Program-made: the position numbers and the translations under genes | Part shown: positions 27,642-59,197 of the stretch, piece by piece | How positions within the stretch are numbered: position 1 is the stretch's first letter | Layout of the letters: each line of letters starts with the position of its first letter | NCBI RefSeq assembly: GCF_022846255.1 | Contig: NZ_AP025682.1 | Origin: Escherichia coli | GTDB taxonomy: Bacteria > Pseudomonadota > Gammaproteobacteria > Enterobacterales > Enterobacteriaceae | Reading direction: 5' to 3' (one strand) | DNA length: 64,000 nucleotides | Notes under the pieces: model-generated | Databases searched by the model: none | Told to the model about the DNA's origin: nothing | The model's input: only the letters and a program-made list of their open reading frames with translations

Positions 27642-27977
27642 ATGGATAAAGAACGCATCATTCAGGAATTTGTGCCCGGTAAACAGGTCACACTGGCGCA
27701 TCTCATCGCGCATCCCGGCGAGGAACTGGCGAAGAAAATCGGCGTTCCGGATGCGGGCGCAATCGGCATTATGACGCTAACTCCCGGAGAAACGGCGATG
27801 ATCGCCGGTGATTTAGCGTTGAAAGCCGCCGATGTGCATATCGGTTTTCTCGACCGTTTTAGCGGCGCGCTGGTGATTTATGGCTCGGTGGGCGCAGTAG
27901 AAGAAGCGTTATCACAAACCGTCAGTGGTTTAGGACGCTTATTAAATTATACGCTTTGTGAAATGACCAAAAGTTAA
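27642..27977 (+). CDS. eutS: EutS bacterial microcompartment shell protein (111 aa)
   Basis: Start at [15 protein letters not shown] inside ORF-track ORF 27570..27977; first gene of eut operon. Confidence 0.9.
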
Positions 27978-27989
27978 TACGAGGCATTC

Positions 27990-28469
27990 ATGAAACGAAT
28001 TGCGTTTGTGGGTACCGTCGGGGCAGGAAAAACAACGTTATTTAATGCGTTGCAGGGGAATTATACCCTCGCAAGAAAAACACAGGCCGTGGAATTTAAT
28101 GATAATGGCGATATCGATACGCCGGGTGAATATTTTAGCCATCCCCGCTGGTATCACGCCTTAATTACCACGCTACAGGATGTGGACATGCTGATCTATG
28201 TCCACGGCGCGAATGACCCGGAAAGTCGGTTGCCTGCCGGGTTGCTGGATATTGGCGTCAGCAAACGGCAAATCGCCGTCATCAGTAAAACGGACATGCC
28301 AGATGCTGACGTCGCCGCAACGCGAAAGTTATTGCTTGAGACGGGCTTCGAAGAGCCGATTTTCGAGCTAAACAGCCACGACCCGCAAAGCGTGCAGCAA
28401 CTGGTGGATTATCTGGCATCTCTCACCAAACAGGAGGAAGCAGGTGAAAAAACTCATCACAGCGAATGA
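27990..28469 (+). CDS. eutP: EutP, EutP/PduV-family P-loop protein (159 aa)
   Basis: Walker A GTVGAGKTT; overlaps eutQ start. Confidence 0.9.
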   Translation: MKRIAFVGTVGAGKTTLFNALQGNYTLARKTQAVEFNDNGDIDTPGEYFSHPRWYHALITTLQDVDMLIYVHGANDPESRLPAGLLDIGVSKRQIAVISKTDMPDADVAATRKLLLETGFEEPIFELNSHDPQSVQQLVDYLASLTKQEEAGEKTHHSE

Positions 28470-29145
28470 TATTCGTGAAGCACACGCGCGCGGCGAACTG
28501 GCAATGTCCGTGGTTCTGCGCGCCAGCATTATTACCCCGGAAGCTCGTGAAGTGGCTGATCTGTTGGGTTTTACCATCACCGAATGTGATGAATCGATCC
28601 CGGTAACGGCGTCTGTTCCCGCCAGCGCATCAGCCGATAAAACCGAAAGCCAGCGCATCCGTGAAACCATTATCGCCCAACTGCCGGAAGGTCAGTTTAC
28701 CGAAAGCCTGGTCGCGCAGCTGATGGAAAAAGTGATGAAGGAAAAACAGTCGCTGGAACAGGGTGCACTGCAGCCGAGCTTTAAATCGGTGACCGGCAAA
28801 GGCGGCATCAAAGTTATTGATGGCAGCAGCGTCAAGTTTGGTCGTTTCGACGGCGCACAGCCGCACTGTGTAGGCTTGACTGATCTCGTGACCGGAGACG
28901 ACGGCAGCAGTATGGCCGCTGGTTTCATGCAGTGGGAGAACGCATTCTTCCCGTGGACTCTGAACTACGACGAAATCGACATGGTGCTGGAAGGGGAGCT
29001 GCATGTTCGCCACGAAGGCGAAACTATGATCGCCAAAGCGGGCGATGTGATGTTTATCCCGAAAGGCTCCAGCATCGAATTTGGTACGACATCCAGCGTG
29101 AAATTTCTGTATGTCGCCTGGCCGGCTAACTGGCAATCCCTATGA
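28444..29145 (+). CDS. eutQ: EutQ cupin-fold microcompartment-associated protein (233 aa)
   Basis: ORF track; position and length match EutQ. Confidence 0.9.
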   Translation: MKKLITANDIREAHARGELAMSVVLRASIITPEAREVADLLGFTITECDESIPVTASVPASASADKTESQRIRETIIAQLPEGQFTESLVAQLMEKVMKEKQSLEQGALQPSFKSVTGKGGIKVIDGSSVKFGRFDGAQPHCVGLTDLVTGDDGSSMAAGFMQWENAFFPWTLNYDEIDMVLEGELHVRHEGETMIAKAGDVMFIPKGSSIEFGTTSSVKFLYVAWPANWQSL

Positions 29146-29945
29146 AAGATTTCATCACCGAAGCATGGCTAAGAGCGAACCATACGCTCAGCGAAGGCGC
29201 AGAGATCCATCTCCCTGCGGACAGTCGCCTGACGCCCTCTGCCCGGGAGTTACTGGAAAGCCGCCATCTGCGCATCAAGTTTATTGACGAGCAGGGCCGC
29301 CTGTTTGTTGACGATGAACAGCAGCAGCCGCAGCCCGTTCACGGGCTGACCAGTAGCGATGAACATCCGCAGGCGTGCTGCGAACTGTGCCGCCAGCCGG
29401 TGGCAAAAAAGCCGGATACGCTGACTCACCTGTCGGCGGAAAAAATAGTTGCCAAAAGCGATCCGCGCCTGGCTTTTCGCGCTGTTCTCGACAGCACCAT
29501 TGCGCTGGCAGTGTGGCTGCAAATTGAACTGGCGGAACCGTGGCAGCCGTGGCTGGCGGATATCCGTTCGCGTCTTGGCAACATTATGCGCGCTGATGCG
29601 CTGGGGGAACCGCTGGCCTGCCAGGCGATTGTCGGGCTTTCTGACGAAGATCTGCATCGGCTTTCTCATCAACCGCTGCGCTATCTTGGTCACGATCATC
29701 TGGTGCCGGAAGCCAGCCACGGACGCGATGCGGCGTTGCTCAATCTGCTACGCACCAAAGTGCGGGAAACCGAAACCGTAGCAGCGCAGGTATTTATCAC
29801 CCGCAGCTTTGAAGTATTACGCCCGGACATCTTGCAGGCGCTGAACCGCCTTTCCAGCACGGTTTACGTGATGATGATCCTGAGCGTAGCGAAACAACCG
29901 CTAACGGTGAAGCAGATCCAACAACGACTGGGGGAAACGCAATGA
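29142..29945 (+). CDS. eutT: EutT corrinoid adenosyltransferase (267 aa)
   Basis: ORF track; 4-bp overlap with eutQ stop. Confidence 0.9.
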
Positions 29946-30958
29946 TTATTGAACGTTGTCGTGAACTGGCGTTGCGAGCGCCCGCCAGAGTAGTTTTTCC
30001 GGATGCGTTAGATCAACGTGTGCTGAAAGCTGCGCAATATTTACATCAACAAGGTCTGGCAACGCCCATTCTGGTCGCCAATCCGTTTGAACTTCGTCAG
30101 TTTGCGCTCAGTCACGGCGTGGCGATGGACGGGCTACAGGTGATAGATCCGCATGGCAACCTCGCAATGCGGGAAGAATTTGCTCATCGCTGGCTGGCCC
30201 GCGCGGGCGAAAAAACGCCGCCGGATGCGCTGGAAAAACTTACCGATCCGCTGATGTTCGCCGCCGCAATGGTCAGCGCCGGTAAAGCGGATGTCTGTAT
30301 CGCGGGCAACCTCTCTTCCACGGCGAATGTGCTGCGTGCCGGATTACGCATTATCGGCTTGCAGCCAGGCTGTAAAACGCTCTCATCCATTTTCCTGATG
30401 CTGCCACAGTACAGCGGTCCGGCGTTGGGTTTTGCCGATTGCAGCGTGGTGCCACAGCCGACGGCGGCACAACTGGCGGATATCGCGCTTGCCAGCGCCG
30501 AAACCTGGCGCGCCATCACCGGAGAAGAACCGCGCGTGGCGATGCTGTCGTTTTCCAGCAACGGTAGTGCCCGTCACCCCTGCGTTGCCAACGTCCAGCA
30601 GGCGACAGAAATCGTCCGTGAGCGCGCACCAAAGCTGGTTGTCGATGGCGAGTTGCAGTTTGACGCCGCCTTCGTGCCGGAAGTGGCGGCGCAAAAAGCG
30701 CCTGCCAGCCCGTTACAGGGCAAAGCCAATGTGATGGTTTTTCCGTCGCTGGAGGCAGGAAATATTGGCTACAAAATCGCACAACGACTTGGCGGATATC
30801 GTGCCGTCGGGCCATTGATACAAGGACTTGCCGCGCCGATGCACGATCTCTCTCGTGGTTGTAGCGTGCAGGAAATTATCGAACTGGCGCTGGTGGCAGC
30901 TGTGCCGCGTCAGACAGAAGTGAACCGCGAAAGCAGTTTACAAACACTGGTTGAATGA
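29942..30958 (+). CDS. eutD: EutD phosphotransacetylase (338 aa)
   Basis: ORF track; Pta-family protein, 4-bp overlap with eutT. Confidence 0.92.
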
Positions 30959-30996
30959 ACGGTCCCGTTCTGGACCCTGATAAAGAGGAAAGCACA

Positions 30997-31290
30997 ATGG
31001 AAGCATTAGGAATGATCGAAACCCGGGGCCTGGTTGCACTGATTGAGGCTTCTGACGCGATGGTTAAAGCTGCGCGCGTCAAGCTGGTTGGTGTTAAGCA
31101 GATTGGCGGCGGCCTGTGTACTGCCATGGTTCGTGGTGATGTTGCAGCCTGTAAAGCCGCGACCGATGCCGGTGCCGCAGCGGCACAGCGTATCGGCGAG
31201 CTGGTATCTGTACACGTTATCCCGCGTCCGCACGGCGACCTGGAAGAAGTCTTCCCGATCGGCCTGAAAGGCGATAGCAGCAACCTGTAA
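30997..31290 (+). CDS. eutM: EutM BMC-H major shell protein (97 aa)
   Basis: [31 protein letters not shown]-domain N-terminus; GAGGAAAG Shine-Dalgarno upstream. Confidence 0.92.
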
Positions 31291-31396
31291 TCACCCTGTG
31301 TGACGTCGATTCGGGCGTCACGCTCTCTCCTTTTTCATTTTACCTTCTGCGGAGGGTAGGGGGAGCTTTTACCTGAAATACGCCACGGAGGCGGGT

Positions 31397-31684
31397 ATGA
31401 AACTGGCAGTCGTCACTGGACAAATTGTTTGTACCGTACGCCATCACGGACTGGCGCATGACAAATTGCTGATGGTGGAAATGATTGATCCACAAGGTAA
31501 TCCTGACGGGCAATGCGCCGTCGCCATCGACAATATTGGCGCGGGAACCGGGGAGTGGGTGTTACTGGTGAGTGGCAGTTCCGCCCGCCAGGCGCATAAA
31601 AGCGAAACGTCACCGGTCGATCTGTGCGTGATTGGCATTGTCGATGAGGTGGTGTCTGGCGGTCAGGTCATTTTCCACAAATAA
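31397..31684 (+). CDS. eutN: EutN microcompartment vertex protein (95 aa)
   Basis: ORF track; EutN/CcmL-type small protein. Confidence 0.9.
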   Translation: MKLAVVTGQIVCTVRHHGLAHDKLLMVEMIDPQGNPDGQCAVAIDNIGAGTGEWVLLVSGSSARQAHKSETSPVDLCVIGIVDEVVSGGQVIFHK

Positions 31685-31695
31685 GGCAGAACATC

Positions 31696-33099
31696 ATGAA
31701 TCAACAGGATATTGAACAGGTGGTGAAAGCGGTACTGCTGAAAATGCAAAGCAGTGACACGCCGCCCGCCGCCGTTCATGAGATGGGCGTTTTCGCGTCC
31801 CTGGATGACGCCGTTGCGGCAGCCAAAGTCGCCCAGCAAGGGTTAAAAAGCGTGGCAATGCGCCAGTTAGCCATTGCTGCCATTCGTGAGGCAGGCGAAA
31901 AACACGCCAGAGATTTAGCGGAACTTGCCGTCAGTGAAACCGGCATGGGGCGCGTTGAAGATAAATTTGCCAAAAACGTCGCTCAGGCGCGCGGCACACC
32001 AGGCGTTGAGTGCCTCTCACCACAGGTGCTGACCGGTGACAACGGCCTGACCCTGATTGAAAACGCGCCCTGGGGCGTGGTGGCTTCGGTAACTCCGTCC
32101 ACCAACCCGGCGGCAACCGTAATTAATAACGCCATCAGCCTGATTGCCGCGGGCAACAGCGTCATTTTTGCCCCGCATCCGGCGGCGAAAAAAGTCTCCC
32201 AGCGGGCGATTACGCTGCTCAACCAGGCGATTGTTGCCGCAGGCGGGCCGGAAAACTTACTGGTTACTGTGGCCAATCCGGATATCGAAACCGCGCAACG
32301 TTTGTTCAAGTTCCCGGGTATCGGCCTGCTGGTGGTGACCGGCGGCGAAGCGGTAGTGGAAGCGGCGCGTAAACACACCAATAAACGTCTGATTGCCGCA
32401 GGCGCTGGCAACCCGCCGGTAGTTGTGGATGAAACCGCTGACCTCGCCCGTGCTGCTCAGTCCATCGTCAAAGGCGCGTCTTTCGATAACAACATCATTT
32501 GTGCCGACGAAAAGGTACTGATTGTTGTTGATAGCGTAGCCGATGAACTGATGCGTCTGATGGAAGGCCAGCATGCGGTGAAACTGACCGCAGAGCAGGC
32601 GCAGCAACTGCAATCGGTGTTGCTGAAAAATATCGACGAGTGCGGAAAAGGCACCGTCAGCCGTGACTGGGTTGGTCGCGATGCGGCGAAAATCGCGGCG
32701 GCAATCGGCCTTAAAGTTCCGGAACAAACGCGACTGCTGTTTGTAGAAACCTCCGCAGAACATCCGTTTGCTGTGACTGAACTGATGATGCCGGTGCTGC
32801 CCGTCGTGCGCGTCGCCAACGTGGCGGATGCCATTGCGCTGGCGGTGAAACTGGAAGGCGGTTGCCACCACACGGCGGCAATGCACTCGCGCAACATCGA
32901 AAACATGAACCAGATGGCGAACGCCATTGATACCAGCATTTTCGTTAAGAACGGACCGTGCATTGCCGGGCTGGGGCTGGGCGGGGAAGGCTGGACCACC
33001 ATGACCATCACCACGCCAACCGGTGAAGGGGTAACCAGCGCGCGGACGTTTGTCCGTCTGCGTCGCTGTGTATTAGTCGATGCGTTTCGCATTGTTTAA
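31696..33099 (+). CDS. eutE: EutE CoA-acylating acetaldehyde dehydrogenase (467 aa)
   Basis: ORF track; aldehyde dehydrogenase family; N-terminal encapsulation-peptide-like helix. Confidence 0.93.
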   Translation: MNQQDIEQVVKAVLLKMQSSDTPPAAVHEMGVFASLDDAVAAAKVAQQGLKSVAMRQLAIAAIREAGEKHARDLAELAVSETGMGRVEDKFAKNVAQARGTPGVECLSPQVLTGDNGLTLIENAPWGVVASVTPSTNPAATVINNAISLIAAGNSVIFAPHPAAKKVSQRAITLLNQAIVAAGGPENLLVTVANPDIETAQRLFKFPGIGLLVVTGGEAVVEAARKHTNKRLIAAGAGNPPVVVDETADLARAAQSIVKGASFDNNIICADEKVLIVVDSVADELMRLMEGQHAVKLTAEQAQQLQSVLLKNIDECGKGTVSRDWVGRDAAKIAAAIGLKVPEQTRLLFVETSAEHPFAVTELMMPVLPVVRVANVADAIALAVKLEGGCHHTAAMHSRNIENMNQMANAIDTSIFVKNGPCIAGLGLGGEGWTTMTITTPTGEGVTSARTFVRLRRCVLVDAFRIV

Positions 33100-33109
33100 G
33101 GAGTAACAG

Positions 33110-33946
33110 ATGGCGCACGACGAACAATGGCTCACCCCACGTCTGCAAACGGCGGCAACGCTGTGTAACCAGACGCCCGCCGCGACGGAATCTCCGCTGT
33201 GGCTGGGGGTGGATCTGGGCACCTGCGATGTGGTGTCGATGATTGTTGACTGCGACGGTCAGCCGGTGGCGGTATGCCTCGACTGGGCCGATGTGGTCCG
33301 CGACGGCATCGTCTGGGATTTCTTCGGTGCGGTCACCATTGTTCGTCGCCATCTCGACACCCTCGAGCAGCAATTCGGTCGCCGTTTTAGCCATGCGGCG
33401 ACCTCTTTTCCTCCAGGCACGGACCCGCGTATTTCCATCAACGTGCTGGAGTCTGCCGGACTGGAAGTGAGCCATGTGCTGGATGAGCCAACCGCAGTTG
33501 CGGATCTGCTGCAACTGGACAACGCCGGTGTAGTGGATATCGGCGGCGGCACTACCGGCATTGCCATCGTGAAAAAAGGCAAAGTGACGTACTCGGCGGA
33601 TGAAGCCACCGGCGGACATCACATCTCTCTGACTCTCGCCGGAAATCGTCGTATTTCGCTGGAAGAGGCAGAGCAGTACAAGCGCGGTCACGGTGAAGAG
33701 ATTTGGCCCGCGGTGAAACCGGTGTACGAAAAAATGGCGGACATTGTCGCCCGGCATATTGAAGGGCAGGGCATTACGGATTTATGGCTGGCGGGCGGCT
33801 CTTGTATGCAACCGGGCGTGGCGGAACTGTTTCGCAAACAATTCCCGGCGTTACAGGTGCATTTACCGCAGCACAGTTTGTTTATGACCCCGCTGGCGAT
33901 CGCCAGTAGCGGGCGAGAGAAAGCGGAGGGGCTATATGCAAAATGA
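33110..33946 (+). CDS. eutJ: EutJ actin/Hsp70-fold chaperone-like protein (278 aa)
   Basis: ORF track; DLGTCD and GGGTTG ATPase-fold motifs. Confidence 0.9.
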   Translation: MAHDEQWLTPRLQTAATLCNQTPAATESPLWLGVDLGTCDVVSMIVDCDGQPVAVCLDWADVVRDGIVWDFFGAVTIVRRHLDTLEQQFGRRFSHAATSFPPGTDPRISINVLESAGLEVSHVLDEPTAVADLLQLDNAGVVDIGGGTTGIAIVKKGKVTYSADEATGGHHISLTLAGNRRISLEEAEQYKRGHGEEIWPAVKPVYEKMADIVARHIEGQGITDLWLAGGSCMQPGVAELFRKQFPALQVHLPQHSLFMTPLAIASSGREKAEGLYAK

Positions 33947-35123
33947 ATTGCAGACCGCGCTCTTTCAGGCGTTCGATACCCTGAATCTGCAACGGGTAAA
34001 AACATTTAGCGTTCCACCGGTGACGCTTTGCGGTCCGGGCGCGGTGAGCAGTTGTGGGCAGCAAGCGCAAACGCGTGGGCTGAAACATCTGTTCGTGATG
34101 GCAGACAGCTTTTTGCATCAGACCGGGATGACCGCCGGGCTGACGCGTAGCCTGGCCGTTAAAGGTATCGCCATGACGCTCTGGCCATGTCCGGTGGGCG
34201 AACCATGCATCACCGACGTGTGTGCAGCCGTGGCGCAGTTGCGTGAATCAGGTTGTGACGGGGTGATCGCGTTTGGCGGCGGCTCGGTGCTGGATGCGGC
34301 GAAAGCCGTGGCGTTGCTGGTGACGAACCCGGATAGCACGCTGGCAGAAATGTCAGAAACCAGCGTTCTGCAACCGCGCCTGCCGTTGATTGCCATTCCA
34401 ACGACCGCCGGAACCGGCTCTGAAACGACTAACGTGACGGTGATTATCGATGCGGTAAGCGGGCGCAAACAGGTGTTAGCCCATGCCTCGCTGATGCCGG
34501 ATGTGGCGATCCTCGACGCCGCATTGACCGAAGGTGTGCCGTCGCATGTCACGGCGATGACTGGCATTGATGCGTTAACCCATGCCATTGAAGCGTACAG
34601 CGCGCTGAACGCCACACCGTTTACCGACAGTCTGGCGATTGGTGCCATTGCGATGATTGGCAAATCGCTGCCGAAAGCGGTGGGCTACGGTCATGACCTT
34701 GCCGCGCGCGAGAGCATGTTGCTGGCTTCATGTATGGCGGGAATGGCGTTTTCCAGTGCCGGACTTGGGTTGTGCCACGCGATGGCGCATCAGCCAGGGG
34801 CGGCGCTGCATATTCCGCACGGTCTGGCGAACGCCATGTTGTTGCCAACGGTGATGGAATTTAACCGGATGGTTTGTCGTGATCGGTTTAGTCAGATTGG
34901 TCGGGCGCTGCGAACTAAAAAATCCGACGATCGTGACGCTATTAACGCGGTAAGTGAGCTGATTGCGGAAGTCGGGATTGGTAAACGACTGGGCGATGTT
35001 GGTGCGACATCTGCGCATTACGGTGCATGGGCGCAGGCCGCGCTGGAAGATATTTGTCTGCGCAGTAACCCGCGTACCGCCAGCCTGGAGCAGATTATTG
35101 GTCTGTATGCTGCGGCGCTATAA
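33936..35123 (+). CDS. eutG: EutG iron-containing alcohol dehydrogenase (395 aa)
   Basis: ORF track; Fe-ADH family; overlaps eutJ by 11 bp. Confidence 0.92.
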   Translation: MQNELQTALFQAFDTLNLQRVKTFSVPPVTLCGPGAVSSCGQQAQTRGLKHLFVMADSFLHQTGMTAGLTRSLAVKGIAMTLWPCPVGEPCITDVCAAVAQLRESGCDGVIAFGGGSVLDAAKAVALLVTNPDSTLAEMSETSVLQPRLPLIAIPTTAGTGSETTNVTVIIDAVSGRKQVLAHASLMPDVAILDAALTEGVPSHVTAMTGIDALTHAIEAYSALNATPFTDSLAIGAIAMIGKSLPKAVGYGHDLAARESMLLASCMAGMAFSSAGLGLCHAMAHQPGAALHIPHGLANAMLLPTVMEFNRMVCRDRFSQIGRALRTKKSDDRDAINAVSELIAEVGIGKRLGDVGATSAHYGAWAQAALEDICLRSNPRTASLEQIIGLYAAAL

Positions 35124-35135
35124 AAGTGTACGGAC

Positions 35136-35240
35136 AGTCCCCTCGCCCCTTTGGGGAGAGGGTTAGGGTGAGGGGAACAGAGTCGCGCCGGTGCAAACAA
35201 TTACCCTCACCCCGGCCCCTCGGCTTCCAGAGTGAGGGAA
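35136..35240. repeat. GC-rich imperfect palindromic repeat in the eutG-eutH spacer
   Basis: cccctcgcccctttggggagaggg and gggtgagggg...ccctcacccc inverted repeats; family not assigned with confidence. Confidence 0.55.
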
Positions 35241-48568: not shown

Positions 48569-49465
48569 TTATTCCTTTTCCAGAGCCTTGCGAATAAAAC
48601 CGCCGTGTTGATCCAGGCATTTTTTAGCTTCATCGGCATCGAGATTTTTCAGTACCATCACAATGGCCGTTTTACAGTTGCGCTCGCAAGCAATTAACGC
48701 CGCTTCCGCTTGTTCGGCATTACATCCGGTAGCGTTTTTGACGATATTGACCTGGCGCACATGCAGTTTTTCGTTGGTGGCGACCACATCGACCATCAGG
48801 TTGCCGAACACTTTGCCGGATTTAATCATCAGCCCGGTGGAGAGCATGTTGAGCACCAGTTTCTGCGCCGTGCCTGCTTTCATTCGCGAAGAACCGGTAA
48901 CAACTTCGGCACCAACTACCGGCGTAATAGCAAACTCTGCGGTGGATGAAACGGCACTCCCCGGATTACAGGAAATGCCCACTGTACGGCAGCCGAGTTG
49001 GCGCGCGTATTCCAGCCCGGCAATCACATACGGCGTGCGTCCGCTGGCCGCAATACCAACCACCACATCCTGCGCGGTTAAGCCGATATTTTTCAGATCA
49101 TTAACACCACCTTCCCGGCTATCTTCTGCGCCTTCCACCGCGTGCTGAATGGCATATTCGCCGCCAGCAATCAAACCAACTACCAGGCCCGGTTTCACGC
49201 CGTAGGTCGGCGGACATTCGCTGGCATCCAGAATCCCCAGACGACCGGATGTTCCCGCACCGAGATAAATCAGACGGCCGCCGCCGCTTACCTGGGGGTG
49301 GATAACATCGATCGCCGCGGCGATATCCGGCAGTACGCGCTCAACGGCGAGTGGTACGGTTTTATCTTCATCGTTGATAATCCGGCACATTTCCAGCGTT
49401 GATACGCGGTCAATTTCAGCCGAGGCGGCGTTCGAGCCTTCGGTAATCATCTTTTCAAGTTGCAT
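48569..49465 (-). CDS. murQ: N-acetylmuramic acid 6-phosphate etherase MurQ (298 aa)
   Basis: ORF track; SIS-domain protein; 3 bp upstream of murP. Confidence 0.93.
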
Positions 49466-49744
49466 CGGTGGTGACCTTAATATTTGCGATCAAATAATTG
49501 CAGATAAATGGGATCATATATCCCGATTTGATAGACACAAAGGAATCATTAAGTCCGAATATTACTCATGTGATGTCACTGAAAATGATTGCGCGCTGAC
49601 GTAACGCTTGAGGTGCTGCATAAAGCAGCGACTAAATTGAGATTTTCCTGAATTAGTGAGCTGATCCGCAGCAATATTTTGTTTATCCTGTATTTTCAGA
49701 GGGAATGGAGTGTAACGCTCTGTATTAACAAGGAGAGCATTAAA

Positions 49745-50536
49745 ATGGGTAAACTCACGGGCAAGACAGCACTGATTACGGGCGCATTGCAGGGAATTGG
49801 CGAAGGAATTGCCAGAACTTTTGCGCGTCATGGCGCAAACCTAATCTTGCTGGATATCTCCCCTGAGATCGAAAAGCTGGCGGACGAACTGTGTGGCCGT
49901 GGTCATCGCTGTACGGCGGTTGTCGCCGATGTGCGTGACCCGGCGTCGGTAGCCGCAGCTATTAAGCGCGCTAAGGAAAAAGAAGGGCGCATTGATATTC
50001 TGGTGAATAACGCAGGCGTTTGTCGTCTGGGCAGTTTCCTTGATATGAGCGATGAAGATCGCGATTTCCATATTGATATCAATATAAAAGGCGTATGGAA
50101 CGTCACGAAGGCGGTGCTGCCGGAGATGATTGCCCGCAAAGATGGCCGGATTGTGATGATGTCTTCAGTCACTGGCGATATGGTGGCAGACCCGGGCGAA
50201 ACGGCGTACGCCTTAACGAAAGCGGCGATTGTTGGCCTGACTAAATCGCTGGCGGTGGAGTACGCGCAGTCTGGTATTCGCGTTAACGCCATCTGCCCTG
50301 GATACGTTCGCACGCCAATGGCGGAAAGCATTGCCCGCCAGTCGAACCCGGAAGATCCAGAATCGGTGCTGACTGAAATGGCGAAAGCAATCCCGATGCG
50401 TCGCCTCGCCGATCCGCTGGAAGTCGGCGAACTGGCGGCCTTCCTCGCATCGGATGAATCCAGCTATTTAACCGGTACACAGAATGTGATTGATGGCGGC
50501 AGCACACTGCCGGAGACGGTTAGCGTCGGCATCTGA
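49745..50536 (+). CDS. ucpA: short-chain dehydrogenase/reductase UcpA (263 aa)
   Basis: Start at MGKLTGKTALITGALQGIG (Rossmann motif) inside ORF-track ORF 49679..50536. Confidence 0.9.
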   Translation: MGKLTGKTALITGALQGIGEGIARTFARHGANLILLDISPEIEKLADELCGRGHRCTAVVADVRDPASVAAAIKRAKEKEGRIDILVNNAGVCRLGSFLDMSDEDRDFHIDINIKGVWNVTKAVLPEMIARKDGRIVMMSSVTGDMVADPGETAYALTKAAIVGLTKSLAVEYAQSGIRVNAICPGYVRTPMAESIARQSNPEDPESVLTEMAKAIPMRRLADPLEVGELAAFLASDESSYLTGTQNVIDGGSTLPETVSVGI

Positions 50537-50548
50537 TTCACCTCTGTT

Positions 50549-50580
50549 TCCTCCCTGCATTTGTGGGGAGGATTTCGTCT
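50549..50580 (+). terminator. terminator after ucpA
   Basis: tcctccc-tgcatttgtg-gggagga hairpin followed by T-rich tract. Confidence 0.5.
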
Positions 50581-50693
50581 TATTCCCTTTTCAACTTCCA
50601 AATCACCAAACGGTATATAAAACCGTTACTCCTTTCACGTCCGTTATAAATATGATGGCTATTAGAAAGTCATTAAATTTATAAGGGTGCGCA

Positions 50694-51710
50694 ATGGCCG
50701 TTAACTTACTGAAAAAGAACTCACTCGTGCTGGTTGCTTCTCTGCTACTGGCGGGCCATGTACAGGCAACGGAACTGCTGAACAGTTCTTATGACGTCTC
50801 CCGCGAGCTGTTTGCCGCCCTGAACCCGCCGTTTGAGCAACAATGGGCAAAAGATAACGGTGGCGACAAACTGACGATTAAACAATCTCATGCCGGATCA
50901 TCAAAACAGGCGCTGGCAATTTTGCAGGGTTTAAAAGCCGACGTTGTCACTTATAACCAGGTGACCGACGTACAAATCCTGCACGATAAAGGCAAGCTGA
51001 TCCCAGCGGACTGGCAGTCGCGCCTGCCGAATAATAGCTCGCCGTTCTACTCCACCATGGGCTTCCTGGTGCGTAAGGGCAACCCGAAGAATATCCACGA
51101 CTGGAACGACCTGGTACGCTCTGACGTGAAGCTGATTTTCCCGAACCCGAAAACGTCGGGTAACGCGCGTTATACCTACCTTGCGGCATGGGGCGCAGCA
51201 GACAAAGCCGACGGTGGTGATAAAGCCAAAACCGAACAGTTTATGACCCAGTTCCTGAAAAACGTTGAAGTGTTCGATACTGGCGGTCGTGGCGCGACCA
51301 CCACTTTTGCCGAGCGCGGCCTGGGCGATGTGCTGATCAGCTTCGAGTCGGAAGTGAACAACATCCGTAAACAGTATGAAGCGCAGGGCTTTGAAGTGGT
51401 GATTCCGAAAACCAACATTCTGGCGGAATTCCCGGTGGCGTGGGTCGATAAAAATGTGCAGGCCAACGGCACGGAAAAAGCGGCAAAAGCCTACCTGAAC
51501 TGGCTCTACAGCCCGCAGGCGCAAACCATCATCACCGACTATTACTACCGCGTAAATAACCCGGAAGTCATGGACAAACTGAAAGATAAATTCCCGCAGA
51601 CCGAGCTGTTCCGCGTGGAAGACAAATTTGGCTCCTGGCCGGAAGTGATGAAAACCCACTTCACCAGCGGCGGCGAGTTAGACAAGCTGTTAGCGGCGGG
51701 GCGTAAGTAA
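50694..51710 (+). CDS. cysP: thiosulfate/sulfate ABC transporter periplasmic binding protein CysP (338 aa)
   Basis: ORF track; signal peptide. Confidence 0.95.
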
Positions 51711-52543
51711 TGTTTGCCGTTTCTTCAAGACGCGTGCTGCCGGGCTTTACCTTAAGCCTCGGCACCAGTCTGCTGTTTGTGTGCCTGATTTTGCTGCTGC
51801 CGCTCTCCGCGCTGGTGATGCAACTGGCCCAGATGAGCTGGGCGCAGTACTGGGAGGTGATCACCAACCCGCAGGTGGTCGCAGCCTATAAAGTGACGCT
51901 GCTGTCGGCGTTTGTGGCATCGATTTTTAACGGCGTTTTCGGTCTGCTGATGGCGTGGATCTTAACCCGCTATCGCTTTCCGGGTCGCACGCTGCTTGAT
52001 GCGCTGATGGATTTACCCTTTGCGCTGCCAACGGCAGTCGCCGGTTTAACGCTGGCCTCGCTCTTTTCCGTGAACGGTTTTTACGGTGAATGGCTGGCGA
52101 AGTTTGATATCAAAGTCACCTATACCTGGCTGGGGATTGCGGTGGCGATGGCCTTTACCAGCATTCCGTTTGTGGTGCGCACCGTGCAGCCGGTGCTGGA
52201 AGAGTTAGGCCCGGAATATGAAGAGGCGGCAGAAACGCTCGGCGCAACACGCTGGCAGAGTTTTCGCAAAGTGGTGCTGCCGGAACTATCTCCGGCGCTG
52301 GTGGCGGGTGTGGCGCTGTCGTTTACCCGCAGCCTCGGTGAGTTTGGCGCGGTGATTTTTATCGCCGGGAATATCGCCTGGAAAACAGAAGTGACGTCGC
52401 TGATGATCTTTGTTCGCTTACAGGAGTTTGATTACCCGGCGGCGAGCGCGATTGCCTCGGTGATCCTCGCGGCATCGCTGCTGTTGCTGTTCTCAATTAA
52501 CACTCTGCAAAGTCGCTTTGGTCGGCGTGTGGTAGGTCATTAA
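51710..52543 (+). CDS. cysU: sulfate/thiosulfate ABC transporter permease CysU (CysT) (277 aa)
   Basis: ORF track; start overlaps cysP stop. Confidence 0.95.
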   Translation: MFAVSSRRVLPGFTLSLGTSLLFVCLILLLPLSALVMQLAQMSWAQYWEVITNPQVVAAYKVTLLSAFVASIFNGVFGLLMAWILTRYRFPGRTLLDALMDLPFALPTAVAGLTLASLFSVNGFYGEWLAKFDIKVTYTWLGIAVAMAFTSIPFVVRTVQPVLEELGPEYEEAAETLGATRWQSFRKVVLPELSPALVAGVALSFTRSLGEFGAVIFIAGNIAWKTEVTSLMIFVRLQEFDYPAASAIASVILAASLLLLFSINTLQSRFGRRVVGH

Positions 52544-53418
52544 TGGCGGAAGTGACACAATTGAAGCGTTATGACGCGCGCCCGATTAACTGGGGCAAAT
52601 GGTTTCTGATTGGCATCGGGATGCTGGTATCGGCGTTCATCCTGCTGGTACCGATGATTTATATCTTCGTACAGGCGTTCAGCAAAGGACTGATGCCGGT
52701 GTTACAAAATCTGGCCGATCCGGACATGCTGCACGCCATCTGGCTGACGGTGATGATCGCGCTGATTGCCGTACCGGTAAACCTGGTGTTCGGTATTCTG
52801 CTGGCCTGGCTGGTGACGCGCTTTAACTTCCCCGGACGCCAGCTATTGCTGACGCTGTTGGACATTCCGTTTGCCGTGTCGCCGGTGGTTGCTGGTCTGG
52901 TGTATCTGCTGTTCTACGGCTCTAACGGCCCGCTGGGCGGCTGGCTGGATGAACATAATCTGCAAATTATGTTCTCCTGGCCGGGTATGGTACTGGTCAC
53001 CATCTTCGTGACGTGTCCGTTTGTGGTGCGCGAGCTGGTGCCGGTAATGTTAAGTCAGGGCAGCCAGGAAGACGAAGCGGCTATTTTGCTTGGCGCGTCC
53101 GGCTGGCAGATGTTCCGTCGCGTCACGCTGCCGAACATCCGCTGGGCGCTGCTTTACGGCGTGGTGCTGACCAACGCCCGCGCGATTGGCGAGTTTGGCG
53201 CGGTGTCGGTGGTTTCTGGCTCGATTCGCGGCGAAACACTTTCGCTGCCGTTACAGATTGAATTGCTGGAGCAGGACTACAACACCGTCGGCTCCTTTAC
53301 CGCCGCGGCGCTGTTGACGCTGATGGCGATTATCACCCTGTTTTTAAAGAGTATGTTGCAGTGGCGCCTGGAGAACCAGGAAAAACGCGCGCAGCAGGAG
53401 GAGCATCATGAGCATTGA
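52543..53418 (+). CDS. cysW: sulfate/thiosulfate ABC transporter permease CysW (291 aa)
   Basis: ORF track; start overlaps cysU stop. Confidence 0.95.
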
Positions 53419-54505
53419 GATTGCCAATATTAAGAAGTCGTTTGGTCGCACCCAGGTGCTGAACGATATCTCACTGGATATTCCTTCTGGTCAGATGGTC
53501 GCGTTGCTTGGGCCGTCCGGTTCCGGGAAAACCACGCTGCTGCGCATTATCGCCGGGCTGGAGCATCAAACCAGTGGGCATATTCGCTTTCACGGTACCG
53601 ACGTGAGCCGTCTGCACGCGCGGGACCGTAAAGTCGGTTTCGTGTTCCAGCATTACGCGCTGTTTCGCCATATGACGGTGTTTGACAATATCGCTTTTGG
53701 CCTGACGGTGTTGCCACGGCGTGAACGCCCGAATGCGGTGGCGATCAAAGCGAAAGTGACAAAATTGCTGGAGATGGTGCAGCTTGCTCATCTGGCAGAC
53801 CGCTATCCTGCGCAGCTTTCCGGCGGCCAGAAACAGCGTGTGGCGCTGGCGCGCGCGCTTGCTGTAGAACCGCAAATTCTGCTGCTTGATGAACCGTTTG
53901 GCGCGCTGGATGCGCAGGTGCGTAAAGAGTTGCGTCGCTGGCTGCGTCAGTTACATGAAGAGCTGAAATTCACCAGCGTGTTTGTGACCCATGACCAGGA
54001 AGAAGCGACCGAAGTAGCCGATCGTGTAGTGGTGATGAGCCAGGGCAATATCGAGCAGGCTGATGCACCGGACCAGGTATGGCGCGAACCAGCGACCCGT
54101 TTTGTACTCGAATTTATGGGCGAAGTTAACCGCCTGCAGGGAACCATTCGCGGCGGGCAGTTCCATGTTGGCGCACATCGCTGGCCGCTGGGCTATACAC
54201 CTGCGTATCAGGGGCCAGTGGATCTCTTCCTGCGTCCGTGGGAAGTGGATATCAGCCGCCGTACCAGCCTCGATTCGCCGCTGCCGGTACAGGTACTGGA
54301 AGCCAGCCCGAAAGGCCACTACACCCAATTAGTCGTGCAGCCGCTGGGGTGGTACAACGAAGCGCTGACGGTCGTGATGCACGGCGACGACGCCCCGCAA
54401 CGTGGCGAGCGTTTATTCGTTGGTCTGCAACATGCGCGGCTGTATAACGGCGACGAGCGTATTGAAACCCGCGATGAGGAACTTGCTCTCGCACAAAGCG
54501 CCTGA
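53408..54505 (+). CDS. cysA: sulfate/thiosulfate ABC transporter ATP-binding protein CysA (365 aa)
   Basis: Walker [10 protein letters not shown] and ABC signature [15 protein letters not shown]. Confidence 0.96.
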
Positions 54506-54526
54506 TAGGTTGAGTGAATGTTAAAC

Positions 54527-54559
54527 GCCCGGAGGCGCTTCCCGCGATCCGGGCTTTTT
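54527..54559 (+). terminator. terminator after cysA
   Basis: gcccgg...ccgggc hairpin followed by ttttt. Confidence 0.55.
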
Positions 54560-54577
54560 AATGGCAAGGTTTGTAAC

Positions 54578-54625
54578 CTGTAGGTCTGATAAGACGCGCA
54601 AGCGTCGCATCAGGCAACACCACGT
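54578..54625. repeat. REP element between cysA and cysM
   Basis: ctgtaggtctgataagacgcgcaagcgtcgcatcaggca. Confidence 0.75.
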
Positions 54626-54638
54626 ATGGACAGAGATC

Positions 54639-55550
54639 GTGAGTACATTAGAACAAACAATAGGCAATACGCCTCTGGTGAAGTTGCAGCGAATGGGGCC
54701 GGATAACGGCAGTGAAGTGTGGTTAAAGCTGGAAGGCAATAATCCGGCCGGTTCGGTGAAAGATCGTGCGGCGCTTTCGATGATCGTCGAGGCGGAAAAG
54801 CGCGGGGAAATTAAACCGGGTGATGTGTTAATCGAAGCCACCAGTGGTAACACCGGGATTGCGCTGGCAATGATTGCCGCGCTAAAAGGCTATCGCATGA
54901 AATTGCTGATGCCCGACAACATGAGCCAGGAACGCCGTGCGGCGATGCTGGCATACGGTGCGGAACTGATTCTTGTCACCAAAGAGCAGGGCATGGAAGG
55001 TGCGCGCGATCTGGCGCTGGAGATGGCCAATCGTGGTGAAGGAAAGCTGCTCGATCAGTTCAACAATCCCGATAACCCTTACGCCCATTACACCACTACC
55101 GGGCCGGAAATCTGGCAGCAAACCGGCGGGCGCATTACCCATTTTGTCTCCAGCATGGGAACAACCGGCACTATCACCGGCGTTTCACGCTTTATGCGCG
55201 AACAATCCAAACCGGTGACCATTGTTGGCCTGCAGCCGGAAGAAGGCAGCAGCATTCCGGGCATTCGCCGCTGGCCTGCGGAATATCTACCGGGGATTTT
55301 CAACGCTTCGCTGGTGGATGAGGTGCTGGATATTCATCAGCGCGATGCGGAAAACACCATGCGCGAACTGGCTGTGCGGGAAGGGATTTTCTGCGGCGTA
55401 AGCTCCGGCGGCGCGGTTGCCGGAGCACTGCGCGTGGCAAAAGCTAACCCCGGCGCGGTGGTTGTGGCGATCATCTGCGATCGCGGCGATCGTTACCTTT
55501 CTACCGGGGTATTCGGGGAAGAGCATTTTAGTCAGGGGGCGGGCATTTAA
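54639..55550 (+). CDS. cysM: cysteine synthase B CysM (303 aa)
   Basis: Recognised protein begins (M)STLEQTIGNTPLVKLQRMG at a GTG codon within ORF-track ORF 54561..55550. Confidence 0.92.
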   Translation: MSTLEQTIGNTPLVKLQRMGPDNGSEVWLKLEGNNPAGSVKDRAALSMIVEAEKRGEIKPGDVLIEATSGNTGIALAMIAALKGYRMKLLMPDNMSQERRAAMLAYGAELILVTKEQGMEGARDLALEMANRGEGKLLDQFNNPDNPYAHYTTTGPEIWQQTGGRITHFVSSMGTTGTITGVSRFMREQSKPVTIVGLQPEEGSSIPGIRRWPAEYLPGIFNASLVDEVLDIHQRDAENTMRELAVREGIFCGVSSGGAVAGALRVAKANPGAVVVAIICDRGDRYLSTGVFGEEHFSQGAGI

Positions 55551-55552
55551 GA

Positions 55553-56012
<460 letters not shown>

Positions 56013-56025
56013 GAGAAAAAATTAA

Positions 56026-56877
56026 ATGAGTAGTTTGTTGTTGTTTAACGATAAGAGCAGGGCACTGCAGGCGGATATCGTTGCCGTGCAGTCGCAGGTA
56101 GTGTACGGCAGCGTAGGCAACAGCATTGCGGTGCCTGCTATCAAACAGAACGGCCTGAATGTCTTTGCCGTGCCGACGGTATTGCTGAGCAATACGCCGC
56201 ATTATGACACTTTCTACGGTGGTGCGATTCCGGATGAATGGTTTAGCGGTTATTTGCGTGCGCTTCAGGAGCGTGATGCGCTGCGCCAACTTCGTGCTGT
56301 AACCACGGGCTATATGGGAACGGCATCGCAAATCAAAATCCTTGCCGAGTGGCTGACTGCGCTACGCAAAGACCATCCTGACCTATTGATCATGGTCGAT
56401 CCGGTGATTGGCGATATTGATAGCGGAATTTATGTCAAACCTAACCTTCCCGAGGCGTATCGACAATATTTACTGCCGCTGGCGCAGGGAATTACCCCCA
56501 ATATCTTTGAGCTGGAAATCCTGACCGGTAAAAATTGCCGCGATCTCGACAGTGTCATTGCTGCCGCAAAAAGTCTGCTTTCAGACACATTAAAATGGGT
56601 GGTGGTTACCAGCGCCTCCGGTAACGAAGAAAATCAGGAGATGCAGGTGGTGGTGGTGAGTGCCGACAGCGTGAATGTCATTTCCCATTCACGGGTAAAA
56701 ACCGATCTGAAAGGGACTGGCGACCTGTTTTGTGCTCAGCTTATCAGTGGTTTGCTGAAAGGGAAGGCGTTAAACGATGCGGTGCACCGCGCGGGGTTGC
56801 GCGTACTGGAAGTGATGCGCTATACCCAGCAGCATGAGAGCGATGAATTGATTTTGCCGCCTCTGGCTGAAGCATAA
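56026..56877 (+). CDS. pdxK: pyridoxal/pyridoxine/pyridoxamine kinase PdxK (283 aa)
   Basis: ORF track; ribokinase-like fold. Confidence 0.92.
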
Positions 56878-56906
56878 AAAAATGGCGCCGATGGGCGCCA
56901 TTTTTC
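56876..56906. terminator. bidirectional terminator between convergent pdxK and crr
   Basis: aaaaa-atggcgcc-gatg-ggcgccat-ttttt. Confidence 0.7.
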
Positions 56907-56919
56907 ACTGCGGCAAGAA

Positions 56920-57429
56920 TTACTTCTTGATGCGGATAACCGGGGTTTCGCCCACAGTCACGCTACCGGACAGTTTGATCAGTTCTTTGATTTCGTCCAT
57001 GTTGGAGATAACAACCGGAGTCAGGGTTGACTTGGCTTTCTCTTCCAGCAGCGGCAGATCAAATTCAATGACAGTATCACCAACTTTCACGCGCTGACCT
57101 TCTTCAGCAATACGCTTGAAGCCTTCGCCTTTCAGTTCAACGGTGTCGATACCGAAGTGGACGAACAGCTCAACGCCGCTATCAGATTCGATAGAGAACG
57201 CGTGGTTGGTTTCAAAGATTTTACCAATGGTGCCGTCTACAGGCGCGACCATTTTGTTACCCGTTGGTTTGATAGCAATGCCATCACCAACGATTTTTTC
57301 CGCAAAAACGACATCCGGCACGTCTTCGATATTGACGATCTCGCCAGAGAGCGGAGCAATGATCTCAATAGTTCCGGTATCCTTCTTGTCGTCGGAAACC
57401 AGAGATTTCAGTTTATCGAACAAACCCAT
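56920..57429 (-). CDS. crr: PTS glucose-specific EIIA component Crr (169 aa)
   Basis: ORF track; [39 protein letters not shown]. Confidence 0.97.
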
Positions 57430-57469
57430 GATCTTCTCCTAAGCAGTAAATTGGGCCGCATCTCGTGGA

Positions 57470-59197
57470 TTAGCAGATTGTTTTTTCTTCAATGAACTTG
57501 TTAACCAGCGTCATTAACTCGTCCGTTGTCGGTTGAGCAAGAGCCTGCTCTGCTAACACCTTCGCATCTTCGAAGTTCGTGTTACGGATAATCTTCTTAA
57601 TGCGCGGGATAGAAATGGCGCTCATAGAGAATTCGTCCAGACCCATCCCCAGCAACAGAAGTGTAGCACGTTCATCGCCTGCAAGCTCACCACACATGCC
57701 AGTCCATTTGCCTTCAGCATGAGAAGCATCAATAACTTGCTTGATCAAGTTCAGCACGGACGGTGACATTGGCTGGTAAAGGTGTGAAATCATATCATTA
57801 CCACGGTCAACTGCCAGAGTGTACTGCGTTAAATCATTGGTGCCGATACTAAAGAAATCAACTTCTTTGGCTAAATGACGTGCAATTGTTGCGGCAGCCG
57901 GTGTTTCCACCATTACGCCGATTTCAATTGACTCGTCAAACGCTTTACCTTCGTCGCGCAGTTCCTGTTTGTAGATTTCGATCTCTTTGCGCAGTGCACG
58001 TACTTCTTCAACAGAGATGATCATCGGGAACATAATGCGCAATTTACCGAAAGCCGAGGCACGCAGGATAGCGCGGAGCTGATCGCGCAGGATCTCTTTA
58101 CGATCCATCGCGATACGGATAGCGCGCCAGCCGAGGAACGGGTTCTCTTCTTTCGGGAAGTTCATGTATGGCAGCTCTTTGTCGCCGCCGATGTCCATGG
58201 TACGAACGATAACCGCCTGCGAGCCACACGCTTCAGCCACTGCTTTGTAAGCAGCAAACTGTTCTTCTTCAGTGGGCAGCGCGTCGCGGTCCATGAACAG
58301 GAACTCAGTACGATACAGACCAACGCCTTCAGCGCCGTTACGCTCTGCACCTTCAACGTCACGAACCGTACCAATGTTAGCGCACACTTCTACCTGGTGA
58401 CCGTCCAGCGTAATAGCTGGCAGATCTTTCAGTTTAGCAAGCTCTGCTTTTTCAGAAGCCACTTGCTCCTGAACAGCGCGCATTTTATCAATAACTTCGT
58501 TGGTTGGATTGACGTAAACCTGATTATTTACGGCATCCAGAATCAGATAGTCGTCATTTTTCACCTGAGAGGTGACGCTACCGGTACCCACGATAGCAGG
58601 CAGTTCCAGAGAACGCGCCATGATAGAGGTGTGGGAAGTACGGCCACCCGCGTCGGTGATGAAACCCAGCACCTTCTTCAGGTTCAGCTGTGCGGTTTCG
58701 GACGGCGTCAGGTCAGCGGCAACCAGAATGACTTCATCCTGAATGGCGCTCAGGTCGATAATCTTCAGGCCCAGGATGTTGCGCAGCAGGCGCTTACCGA
58801 TATCACGTACGTCAGCCGCACGTTCTTTCAGGTATTCATCATCCAGCTCTTCCAGGGCAGAAGCCTGACCTTCGATAACTTCATGAGCAGCTGCGTCAGC
58901 TGTCATGTGCTTATCTTTAATCAGGGCTATGATTTCCTGCTCCAGCTCCTCATCTTCGAGCAGCATAATATGCCCTTCAAAGATGGCTTCTTTTTCTTCA
59001 CCGAACGTTTCACCAGCTTTCGTTTTGATCGTTTCCAGCTGGGCTGATGCCTTGGCACGACCGCTCAGAAAACGTTCAACTTCCTGATCAACCTGGTCGG
59101 CAGAAATTTTTTTCCGGTCAATGACAATTTCGTCTTCTTTCAGAAGCAGAGCTTTACCGAAAGCGATACCCGGGGATGCTAAAATGCCTGAAATCAT
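57470..59197 (-). CDS. ptsI: PTS enzyme I (PtsI, 575 aa)
   Basis: ORF track; [23 protein letters not shown]. Confidence 0.97.

Follow-up and report, generated by a model that had tools for sequence, protein, structure and literature searches.

Overlapping gene junctions and their probable translational coupling in the sulfate/thiosulfate importer operon cysPUWA of Escherichia coli

Gene content and organization of the cys locus

The analyzed window, a 64,000-nucleotide stretch of an Escherichia coli genome, contains the genes cysP, cysU, cysW, cysA and cysM in this order on the plus strand, adjoining ucpA and collinear with E. coli K-12 and strain T309.Ta3. The ORF cysP (50694-51710) encodes the periplasmic thiosulfate/sulfate-binding protein (338 aa; NCBIfam NF008106, 1-338 of 338, 725 bits), cysU (also cysT, 51710-52543) and cysW (52543-53418) encode permease subunits of 277 aa (NF008208, 1-277 of 277) and 291 aa (NF008620, 1-291 of 291), and cysA (53408-54505) encodes the ATP-binding subunit of 365 aa, of which residues 1-365 align to positions 1-362 of the 362 in NF008105. 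All four ORFs match from residue 1 over the full length with scores far above the curated cut-offs, CysP at the level of a specific subfamily and CysT, CysW and CysA as equivalogs. The last gene of the operon, cysM for cysteine synthase B (54639-55550), was assigned by annotation transfer and does not overlap; between it and cysA lies a spacer of 133 nt containing a REP-like element. A search for RNA families gave only a partial, sub-threshold naRNA4/REP match in this spacer (54584-54616), outside the cysPUWA junctions, and no match to a known family at the junctions.

CysU also matches the CysW model and vice versa, so that two homologous permeases stand beside one ATPase gene. The closest solved relatives found by PDB search are ModB-type permeases (3d31, 2onk) and a CysA-like ATPase (1z47), and no CysUWA structure was present in the PDB copy searched. 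The family content fits a Type I ABC importer with a predicted TMD2:NBD2 complex.

The locus is present as a single copy in 5425 of 5426 complete E. coli genomes (megablast). With the K-12 operon cysPUWAM (b2425-b2421) it shares the genes, their order and the three junction geometries (1, 1 and 11 nt; RefSeq) at 95.3% DNA identity over the region. Within the operon only allelic differences occur, such as GAG versus GAA in the tail of CysW. K-12 lacks a letter-for-letter copy of the window's cysP/cysU junction string, although its annotated 1-nt overlap is equal. In comparison to K-12, this lineage lacks murR and yfeS and has a shorter ucpA-cysP spacer. The cys genes have been described as one polycistronic operon (PMC3082872). 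A simple sigma-70 scan of positions 50400-55700 revealed no promoter-like site, and terminator-like matches in the same interval were not more frequent than in shuffled sequence. For this reason, a split of the operon by internal promoters or terminators was rejected. An operon of this type would be expected to have a CysB-dependent promoter ahead of cysP and to respond to sulfur limitation.

Junction geometry and ribosome-binding sites

There is no intergenic space across the four transporter genes, and since they are packed without gaps, each downstream ribosome-binding site lies inside the upstream coding sequence. Both junctions of cysU read TAATG on the plus strand. At cysP/cysU (51708-51712), the last A of the stop TAA (51708-51710) is the first base of the cysU ATG (51710-51712), which corresponds to a spacing of -1; the cysU/cysW junction (52541-52545) has the same spacing, with the stop TAA at 52541-52543 and the cysW ATG at 52543-52545. 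The genes cysW and cysA overlap by the 11 nt ATGAGCATTGA (53408-53418, plus strand) from the cysA ATG (53408-53410) to the cysW stop TGA (53416-53418), which falls within cysA codons 3-4 (ATT GAG). An earlier sequence-only reading had proposed overlaps of 1, 1 and 11 nt in the interval 51707-53420. This interval spans all three junctions, and inspection of the sequence confirmed the lengths, as did the identical relative coordinates in RefSeq K-12 MG1655 and the PGAP-annotated T309.Ta3. The label "ATGA-type" had to be corrected, because ATGA denotes a 4-nt overlap (-4) and both 1-nt overlaps are TAATG.

Upstream of the cysU ATG, a Shine-Dalgarno (SD)-like GGGG (51698-51701) lies within the end of cysP at a distance of 8 nt, with a predicted anti-SD duplex energy of -6.1 kcal/mol. 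For cysW, the motif is GGTAGGT (52531-52537) within the end of cysU, 5 nt upstream of the ATG (-6.2 kcal/mol), and for cysA it is the strong AGGAGG (53396-53401) within the cysW codons for Q-E-E, 6 nt upstream of the ATG (-10.3 kcal/mol); all three lie on the plus strand, and the window median is -6.55 kcal/mol. The predicted energies for opening the initiation region, calculated on 120-nt fragments and ranked among 60 genes of the window, are 11.9 kcal/mol for cysU (rank 49), 14.2 kcal/mol for cysW (rank 52) and 8.7 kcal/mol for cysA (rank 28).

Conservation of junctions, motifs and start codons

The junctions were compared in about 80 Enterobacterales species, each represented by one genome. 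The -1 spacing of cysP/cysU is present in 67 of 79 sequences (58 TAATG, 9 TGATG); the exceptions are ten Citrobacter-like species with TAAATG (spacing 0), one ambiguous GTGATG (-4 or -1) and one spacing of +2. For cysU/cysW it is found in 77 of 80 sequences (49 TAATG, 28 TGATG), and the remaining three comprise one +2 spacing, one frameshifted assembly and one contig-end artefact. Thus, the stop codon alternates between TAA and TGA and the shared A is retained. The 11-nt overlap of cysW/cysA occurs in 78 of 79 sequences, the exception being Shimwellia (-4), and ATGAGCATTGA is invariant with zero entropy at all 11 positions in the 78 species. As these geometries are kept despite heavily substituted neighboring synonymous sites, the junction pattern exceeds chance.

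The SD-like motifs, which are modest for cysU and cysW and strong for cysA, are likewise conserved beyond coding needs. The GGGG of cysU is nearly invariant, including the four-fold degenerate third positions of the Ala/Gly codons. The last four codons of cysU show less synonymous variation, and in Pantoea and Erwinia relatives the cysW motif reads GGGAGGT. The core GGAG of the cysA motif is invariant in 78 species, whereas the CysW tail around it is variable. Since SD-like motifs are kept at all three downstream genes, independent initiation would be possible at each of them.

Each ORF opens at the earliest possible start after the preceding in-frame stop, and a reassignment of starts that removes the overlaps had been named in the sequence-only reading as the case against them. 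True starts of cysU, cysW or cysA might lie downstream, for example at the GTG of cysU codon 9, given the weak conservation of CysU residues 4-7 and CysW residues about 8-14 and the TIGR02139 CysT model, whose alignment begins at residue 9. In the downstream frame, however, the entropies at the three codon positions are 0.57/0.41/1.27 for cysU, 0.88/0.65/1.36 for cysW and 0.17/0.18/0.72 for cysA, and third-position variability sets in immediately past each ATG in the approximately 80 species, so that the starts cannot be moved. Coding-type variation is also evident in the N-termini, with MFA followed by a free third position in the GCN codon, MAE/MAD and MSIE. The CysU N-terminus MFA...[KR]RVLPGF is in frame in all species, MSIEI/MSIDI is conserved in CysA, and the frame is held with a single whole-codon indel across the set. 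Furthermore, the equivalog models span residues 1-277, 1-291 and 1-365, two independent annotations concur, and the SD-like motifs precede the annotated ATGs by 5 to 8 nt. Mis-assigned starts are therefore extremely unlikely; the downstream candidates, including the GTG, were rejected on in-frame conservation and codon-position periodicity, which uphold the annotated ATGs.

Translational coupling and its alternatives

The region is the sulfate/thiosulfate ABC importer operon cysP-cysU-cysW-cysA(-cysM), with junctions that are probably coupled translationally on one mRNA, and coupling is the most likely reading of the junctions, as suggested by their geometry and conservation. On a single polycistronic mRNA, a ribosome terminating on cysP or cysU at the -1 junctions would sit directly on the next AUG. 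The AUGs of cysU and cysW have a modest SD-like motif and an initiation region predicted to be rather closed; the terminating ribosome may reinitiate there or keep the site accessible to a new 30S subunit, which would link the synthesis of CysU and CysW, the two permease halves, to each other. The AGGAGG of the -11 junction is strong, conserved, predicted to be accessible and located in the variable CysW tail, and because of this motif the cysW/cysA junction probably works partly by direct initiation besides coupling. Such added direct initiation at cysA would suit two CysA per CysU-CysW pair.

The spacings -4 and -1 are the commonest, and coupling has its peak efficiency from -4 to +3 and declines with overlaps longer than -4 (review PMC12548453). 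Among E. coli gene pairs at -8 to +10, those encoding heteromeric complexes are enriched 4.5-fold, and Huber et al. regard this range as predictive of termination-reinitiation (PMC10666635). The junctions cysP/cysU and cysU/cysW lie inside this range and cysW/cysA lies just outside. Full-text literature searches found no ribosome-profiling or other experimental data specific to coupling at the cys junctions.

The subunits had been called stoichiometric in the sequence-only reading. They do belong to one complex, but the term is too simple. The published composition is CysA2-CysU-CysW plus a free binding protein, the ratio of 2:1:1 being a literature value rather than one read from a CysUWA structure; CysP, a soluble partner in the periplasm, is not a fixed subunit. 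Published proteome mass fractions, which are weak for the under-detected membrane proteins, are about 6e-4 for CysP, between 6e-4 and 1e-3 for CysA and 0.5-2.5e-4 for CysU; CysW was not detected (PMC8144880 supplement). Because these fractions are unequal, the cys proteins are not equimolar, and therefore any coupling at cysP/cysU must be well below 100 per cent efficient.

These several-fold differences between CysP, CysA and CysU would also agree with overlaps that are functionless compaction, caused by deletion bias and base-sharing stops and starts, with each gene initiating independently at its own SD-like site and the initiation strengths setting the subunit ratio. The conserved SD-like motif at each downstream gene, the spacing variants 0, +2 and -4 inside Enterobacterales and the spacings of +1 to +15 at the same junctions in distant taxa point in the same direction, and overlaps are frequent anyway, with 10 of 43 same-strand neighbor pairs in the window overlapping and 24% of unidirectional E. 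coli pairs lying at -8 to +6. Against this stand the exact geometry in 67 to 78 of about 80 species despite heavy adjacent synonymous substitution, and the shared A, which is never lost although the stop toggles between TAA and TGA. Moreover, the motifs of cysU and cysW are of average strength with initiation regions predicted to be relatively closed, and reinitiation was very strongly distance-dependent in every one of six native pairs with overlaps, of which E. coli and Haloferax volcanii contributed three each (PMC10666635). Neutral compaction is thus considered unlikely, with a small but real probability.

Coupling could also operate via RNA unfolding if a hairpin sequesters the cysW start, and perhaps others, and is opened only by a ribosome on the upstream gene. 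In the MFE and centroid folds of the window sequence, a hairpin of about 45 nt contains GGUAGGU together with the cysW AUG, and the high predicted opening energy of cysW would be in agreement with it. On the other hand, folds of 120 nt at the junctions showed no significant structure compared to shuffled sequences (z = +0.41, +0.17 and -0.62), with the cysW start, at +0.17, no stabler than its shuffles. Citrobacter, Pantoea and others have lost the hairpin or have another one in its place, with synonymous changes such as GTG to GTT that are not compensated, and at -1 spacing the terminating ribosome itself covers the start site. This mechanism is very unlikely, and a conserved RNA element over the cysW start was rejected, as the hairpin is not conserved and its changes are uncompensated.

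A more far-reaching version of the coupling model, regarded as quite improbable, would have CysA synthesized about twice as fast as CysW, with the invariant 11-nt overlap and the AGGAGG in the freely evolving CysW tail (…QE-x-x-HEH*) acting as a dedicated ratio-setting device that combines direct and coupled initiation. The overlap might also hold the ribosome that terminates on cysW close to nascent CysA and so permit co-translational assembly, while the -1 junctions would enforce CysU:CysW at 1:1 and cysP/cysU would be a deliberately leaky coupler.

Comparison with other operons and significance

The pairs trpE/trpD and trpB/trpA are the classic overlapping genes coupled by termination-reinitiation. 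Termination-reinitiation pairs of E. coli (Huber et al., 2019, 2023) are likewise co-directional, on one transcript and encode subunits of one complex, and they include pairs whose stop and start overlap at -1 and whose SD-like motif lies within the upstream gene, as in cys. They differ from cysPUWA in that coupling of the latter is inferred from geometry and in that the -11 of cysW/cysA is beyond their range of -8 to +10.

Within the window, the eut operon offers a parallel that had been pointed out before and that is right in substance. The junctions eutQ/T and eutT/D are ATGA (-4), eutH/A is GTGA (-4), eutJ/G is -11 and eutP/Q is -26. Like cysW/cysA, eutJ/eutG combines an 11-nt overlap with a strong SD inside the upstream gene (GGAGG, -10.0 kcal/mol). 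In contrast, the -4 ATGA/GTGA type is absent from cysPUWA, and many eut neighbors are 9 to 20 nt apart with an SD of their own.

In Alphaproteobacteria and cyanobacteria, annotated plasmid and chromid records contain sbp-cysT-cysW-cysA operons with the same gene order and tight packing, most junctions being at -11 to +15 nt and one at +67. According to database start predictions alone, Rhizobium and Sinorhizobium have cysT/cysW at -11, Pseudanabaena at -8 and Cereibacter at +3, and the spacing of cysW/cysA ranges from +10 to +15. These few distant records suggest that the combination -1/-1/-11 may be peculiar to Enterobacterales. Due to these other spacings in distant taxa and the variants 0, +2 and -4 in Enterobacterales, the junction geometry is not essential.

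The overlap layout of cysPUWA is long known and ordinary for bacterial operons encoding protein complexes. This agrees with the sequence-only reading, which had claimed no novelty: no spacing is more common in E. coli than a short overlap, and genes for heteromeric complexes are enriched in such overlaps (PMC10666635). Taken alone, the confirmation of textbook operon architecture at one of the best-annotated loci of E. coli carries little weight. The locus is nevertheless a clean natural example, with three consecutive overlaps of two types in one transporter operon and a geometry fixed over about 80 species. Together with the wholly invariant dual-coding segment of 11 nt, this makes it well suited for testing how overlap length and Shine-Dalgarno strength determine subunit ratios of 1:1:2 in ABC importers, and calls for caution when the operon is recoded or refactored.

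Gene content and junction geometry of cysPUWA

Using the ORF list, the raw sequence and NCBIfam, four genes were identified on the + strand: cysP (50694-51710; 338 aa), cysU, also named cysT (51710-52543; 277 aa), cysW (52543-53418; 291 aa) and cysA (53408-54505; 365 aa). The NCBIfam scores of CysP, CysT, CysW and CysA are well over the curated cut-offs, and the models were aligned from the first to the last residue. Of 5426 complete E. coli genomes, 5425 contain the 4-kb region, each in single copy. The relative coordinates of cysPUWA are identical in the annotations of K-12 MG1655 and the PGAP-annotated strain T309.Ta3, which is collinear with the window and whose annotation was transferred to it, all transferred CDS being intact ORFs. 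The region is the cysPUWAM operon itself, not just a look-alike. Neither strand suggested another identity in the ORF list or the Rfam and repeat check, which revealed no RNA family or repeat in 51707-53420; antisense ORFs in the region are the usual shadows of GC-rich coding DNA.

The overlaps of 1, 1 and 11 nt claimed in the sequence-only reading were correct when the junction sequences were inspected, and lie within 51707-53420. The final A of the cysP stop codon TAA (51708-51710) is also the first base of the cysU ATG (51710-51712); the TAA of cysU (52541-52543) and the cysW ATG (52543-52545) are joined in the same way. The cysA ATG begins at 53408 and the cysW stop TGA is located at 53416-53418, resulting in the 11-nt overlap ATGAGCATTGA. 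The label "ATGA-type" for the 1-nt overlaps was wrong: their motif is TAATG (spacing -1), whereas ATGA is the 4-nt motif (-4). Sirko et al. reportedly described the overlapping junctions together with the sequence in the original sequencing of cysPUWAM in 1990. The overlaps are real and, as had been stated, not novel, being present in all current annotations (K-12 MG1655, T309.Ta3); such junctions in general have been reviewed (PMC12548453).

The comparison with the eut operon (27642-42480) is valid: eutQ/T and eutT/D (both -4, ATGA), eutH/A (-4, GTGA), eutJ/G (-11) and eutP/Q (-26) overlap. The last value hinges on an annotated GTG start with AGGAGG ahead of it; the remaining eut neighbours are mostly 9-20 nt apart, each with its own Shine-Dalgarno (SD) sequence. 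The eutG-eutH spacer (35124-35261) measures 137 nt, compared to 484 nt in T309.Ta3, which marks it as a variable insertion site. Elsewhere, ypeA/yfeZ share 14 nt and gcvR/bcp a single nucleotide (TAATG). Across the window, overlaps occur in 10 of 43 same-strand neighbour pairs, in agreement with the 24% of unidirectional E. coli gene pairs spaced -8 to +6 (PMC10666635).

Start codons and conservation of the overlaps

Reassigned starts of cysU, cysW and cysA, with which the overlaps could disappear, were rejected on three lines of evidence. Every listed cys ORF opens at the first available start past the preceding in-frame stop, and the NCBIfam models align from residue 1. In a comparative set of 80 loci (one genome per species; Enterobacteriaceae, Erwiniaceae, Yersinia), coding-type variation in the downstream frame sets in directly after each ATG, with mean column entropies at codon positions 1/2/3 (codons 2-14) of 0.57/0.41/1.27 for cysU, 0.88/0.65/1.36 for cysW and 0.17/0.18/0.72 for cysA. 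Here the N-terminal peptides are in frame across the set (CysU MFA…[KR]RVLPGF, CysW MAE/MAD/MTD…NWGKW, CysA MSIEI/MSIDI), with a single whole-codon indel in the alignment.

The spacing is -1 at cysP/cysU in 67 of 79 loci (58 TAATG, 9 TGATG), the exceptions being 0 in 10, one ambiguous GTGATG and one +2. At cysU/cysW it is -1 in 77 of 80 (49 TAATG, 28 TGATG), apart from one +2, a frameshifted assembly and a contig-end artefact. The stop codons thus alternate between TAA and TGA, with the shared A retained. For cysW/cysA, -11 was found in 78 of 79. The 11 bases of ATGAGCATTGA have zero entropy in 78 of 78 species, including cysA-synonymous sites (AGC, ATT), as is expected where two frames read one segment. 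5′ of the overlap, the CysW tail varies between species (…QQEEHHEH*, …QQEGNHEH*, …LEGNHEH*), except for the bases forming the cysA SD.

Ten Citrobacter-like loci (L008, L011-L017, L058, L064) carry a 1-nt insertion at cysP/cysU, changing TAATG to TAAATG (spacing 0), and in Shimwellia pseudoproteus (L076) ATGA (-4) replaces the otherwise invariant 11-nt overlap. In Leclercia adecarboxylata NCTC13032 (L069), cysU appears frameshifted around 190 nt before its normal end, near homopolymers (e.g., TTTTTTG), which is probably a long-read assembly error rather than a real pseudogene.

Four annotated operons of Pseudanabaena, Cereibacter, Rhizobium and Sinorhizobium share this order of genes and are mostly tightly spaced, though with a different geometry: by database start predictions, cysT/cysW are spaced -8, +3, -11 and -11, respectively, and cysW/cysA +10 to +15. 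This suggests that -1/-1/-11 as such is a trait of Enterobacterales, whereas tight packing is general.

Lineage and neighbourhood of the locus

Among 5426 complete E. coli genomes, the best match to the cys region (50600-54600, likewise 49000-57500) reaches only 98.5% identity; K-12 reaches 95.3%. Since no genome exceeds 99% (5406 at 95-99%, 21 at 90-95%), the window represents a lineage or allele without a representative among complete RefSeq genomes. Two K-12 genes, murR in the murQ-ucpA interval and yfeS in the cysM-yfeK interval, are absent from the window (49466-49744, 55551-55552) and from T309.Ta3; the K-12 murR fragment had no blastn match across the whole window. The ucpA-cysP spacer (50537-50693) has 157 nt compared to 303 nt in K-12, which has about 142 extra bases there. 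Directly 3′ of ucpA, a terminator-like hairpin, TCCTCCCTGCATTTGTGGGGAGGA, is followed by a T-run (50549-50572).

Within the operon, only cysM neither overlaps nor abuts its neighbour, being separated from cysA by a 133-nt spacer. The spacer contains a REP-type palindromic element, a sub-threshold Rfam naRNA4 match (54584-54616, - strand; 32.2 bits, gathering score 59.5, E = 0.008). The mechanical cysM ORF (ATG 54561 to 55550, 329 aa) extends through this spacer; the annotated start is GTG 54639 (303 aa, MSTLEQ…), with a weak SD (-3.0 kcal/mol).

Probable translational coupling and subunit amounts

Anti-SD duplex energies were computed over 20 nt 5′ of each start (median of 60 window genes: -6.55 kcal/mol). 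On the + strand, cysU is preceded by GGGG (51698-51701, -6.1 kcal/mol), cysW by GGTAGGT (52531-52537, -6.2 kcal/mol; the stronger GGGAGGT in Pantoea-like species) and cysA by AGGAGG (53396-53401, -10.3 kcal/mol). All three motifs are embedded in the upstream coding sequence, with lower synonymous variation than in adjacent codons. Opening energies (-15 to +12 around the start, 120-nt fragments) were predicted as 11.9 and 14.2 kcal/mol for cysU and cysW, which are relatively closed (ranks 49 and 52 of 60), and 8.7 kcal/mol for cysA (rank 28, around the median of 8.75). No significant local structure was detected at the junctions (z against shuffles +0.41, +0.17, -0.62), and a hairpin foldable over the cysW start is not retained in other genera. 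In the scanned region no sigma-70-like promoter was found, terminator-like matches were no commoner than in shuffled sequence and no Rfam family reached its threshold.

The four genes thus lack intergenic DNA and have correct starts, conserved geometry and conserved embedded SD-like motifs. From this we infer that translational coupling is likely, an interpretation that is broadly right but was over-simplified. At -1, a ribosome terminating the upstream gene would cover the next AUG. This spacing is among the commonest, coupling being most efficient from -4 to +3 (PMC12548453). Reinitiation efficiency was very strongly dependent on the intergenic distance in all six native overlapping pairs studied, three each from E. 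coli and Haloferax volcanii, and such pairs are enriched 4.5-fold for heteromeric complexes (PMC10666635). That cysU and cysW have modest SD motifs, and initiation regions predicted to be relatively closed, would fit dependence on upstream ribosomes. The cysW/cysA junction differs: overlaps beyond -4 reportedly couple less well (PMC12548453), -11 is not among the spacings of -8 to +10 classed together by Huber et al. (PMC10666635), and AGGAGG is strong, conserved and predicted to be accessible; we therefore speculate that cysA might be translated by both coupled and directly initiating ribosomes.

The rationale that coupling suits stoichiometric subunits holds only in part: two ATPase copies are required, and the binding protein acts as a soluble partner in the periplasm. 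Ribosome profiling by Li et al. in 2014 is said to have shown that binding proteins of ABC importers are made in excess over membrane subunits. In absolute proteome data (PMC8144880 supplement), CysP accounts for a mass fraction of about 6e-4, CysA for 6e-4 to 1e-3 and CysU for 0.5-2.5e-4, whereas CysW was undetected. In molar terms, CysP and CysA exceed CysU roughly 3-4-fold, with the reservation that integral membrane proteins are under-detected by mass spectrometry. Due to these unequal amounts, coupling, if present, does not give equimolar output.
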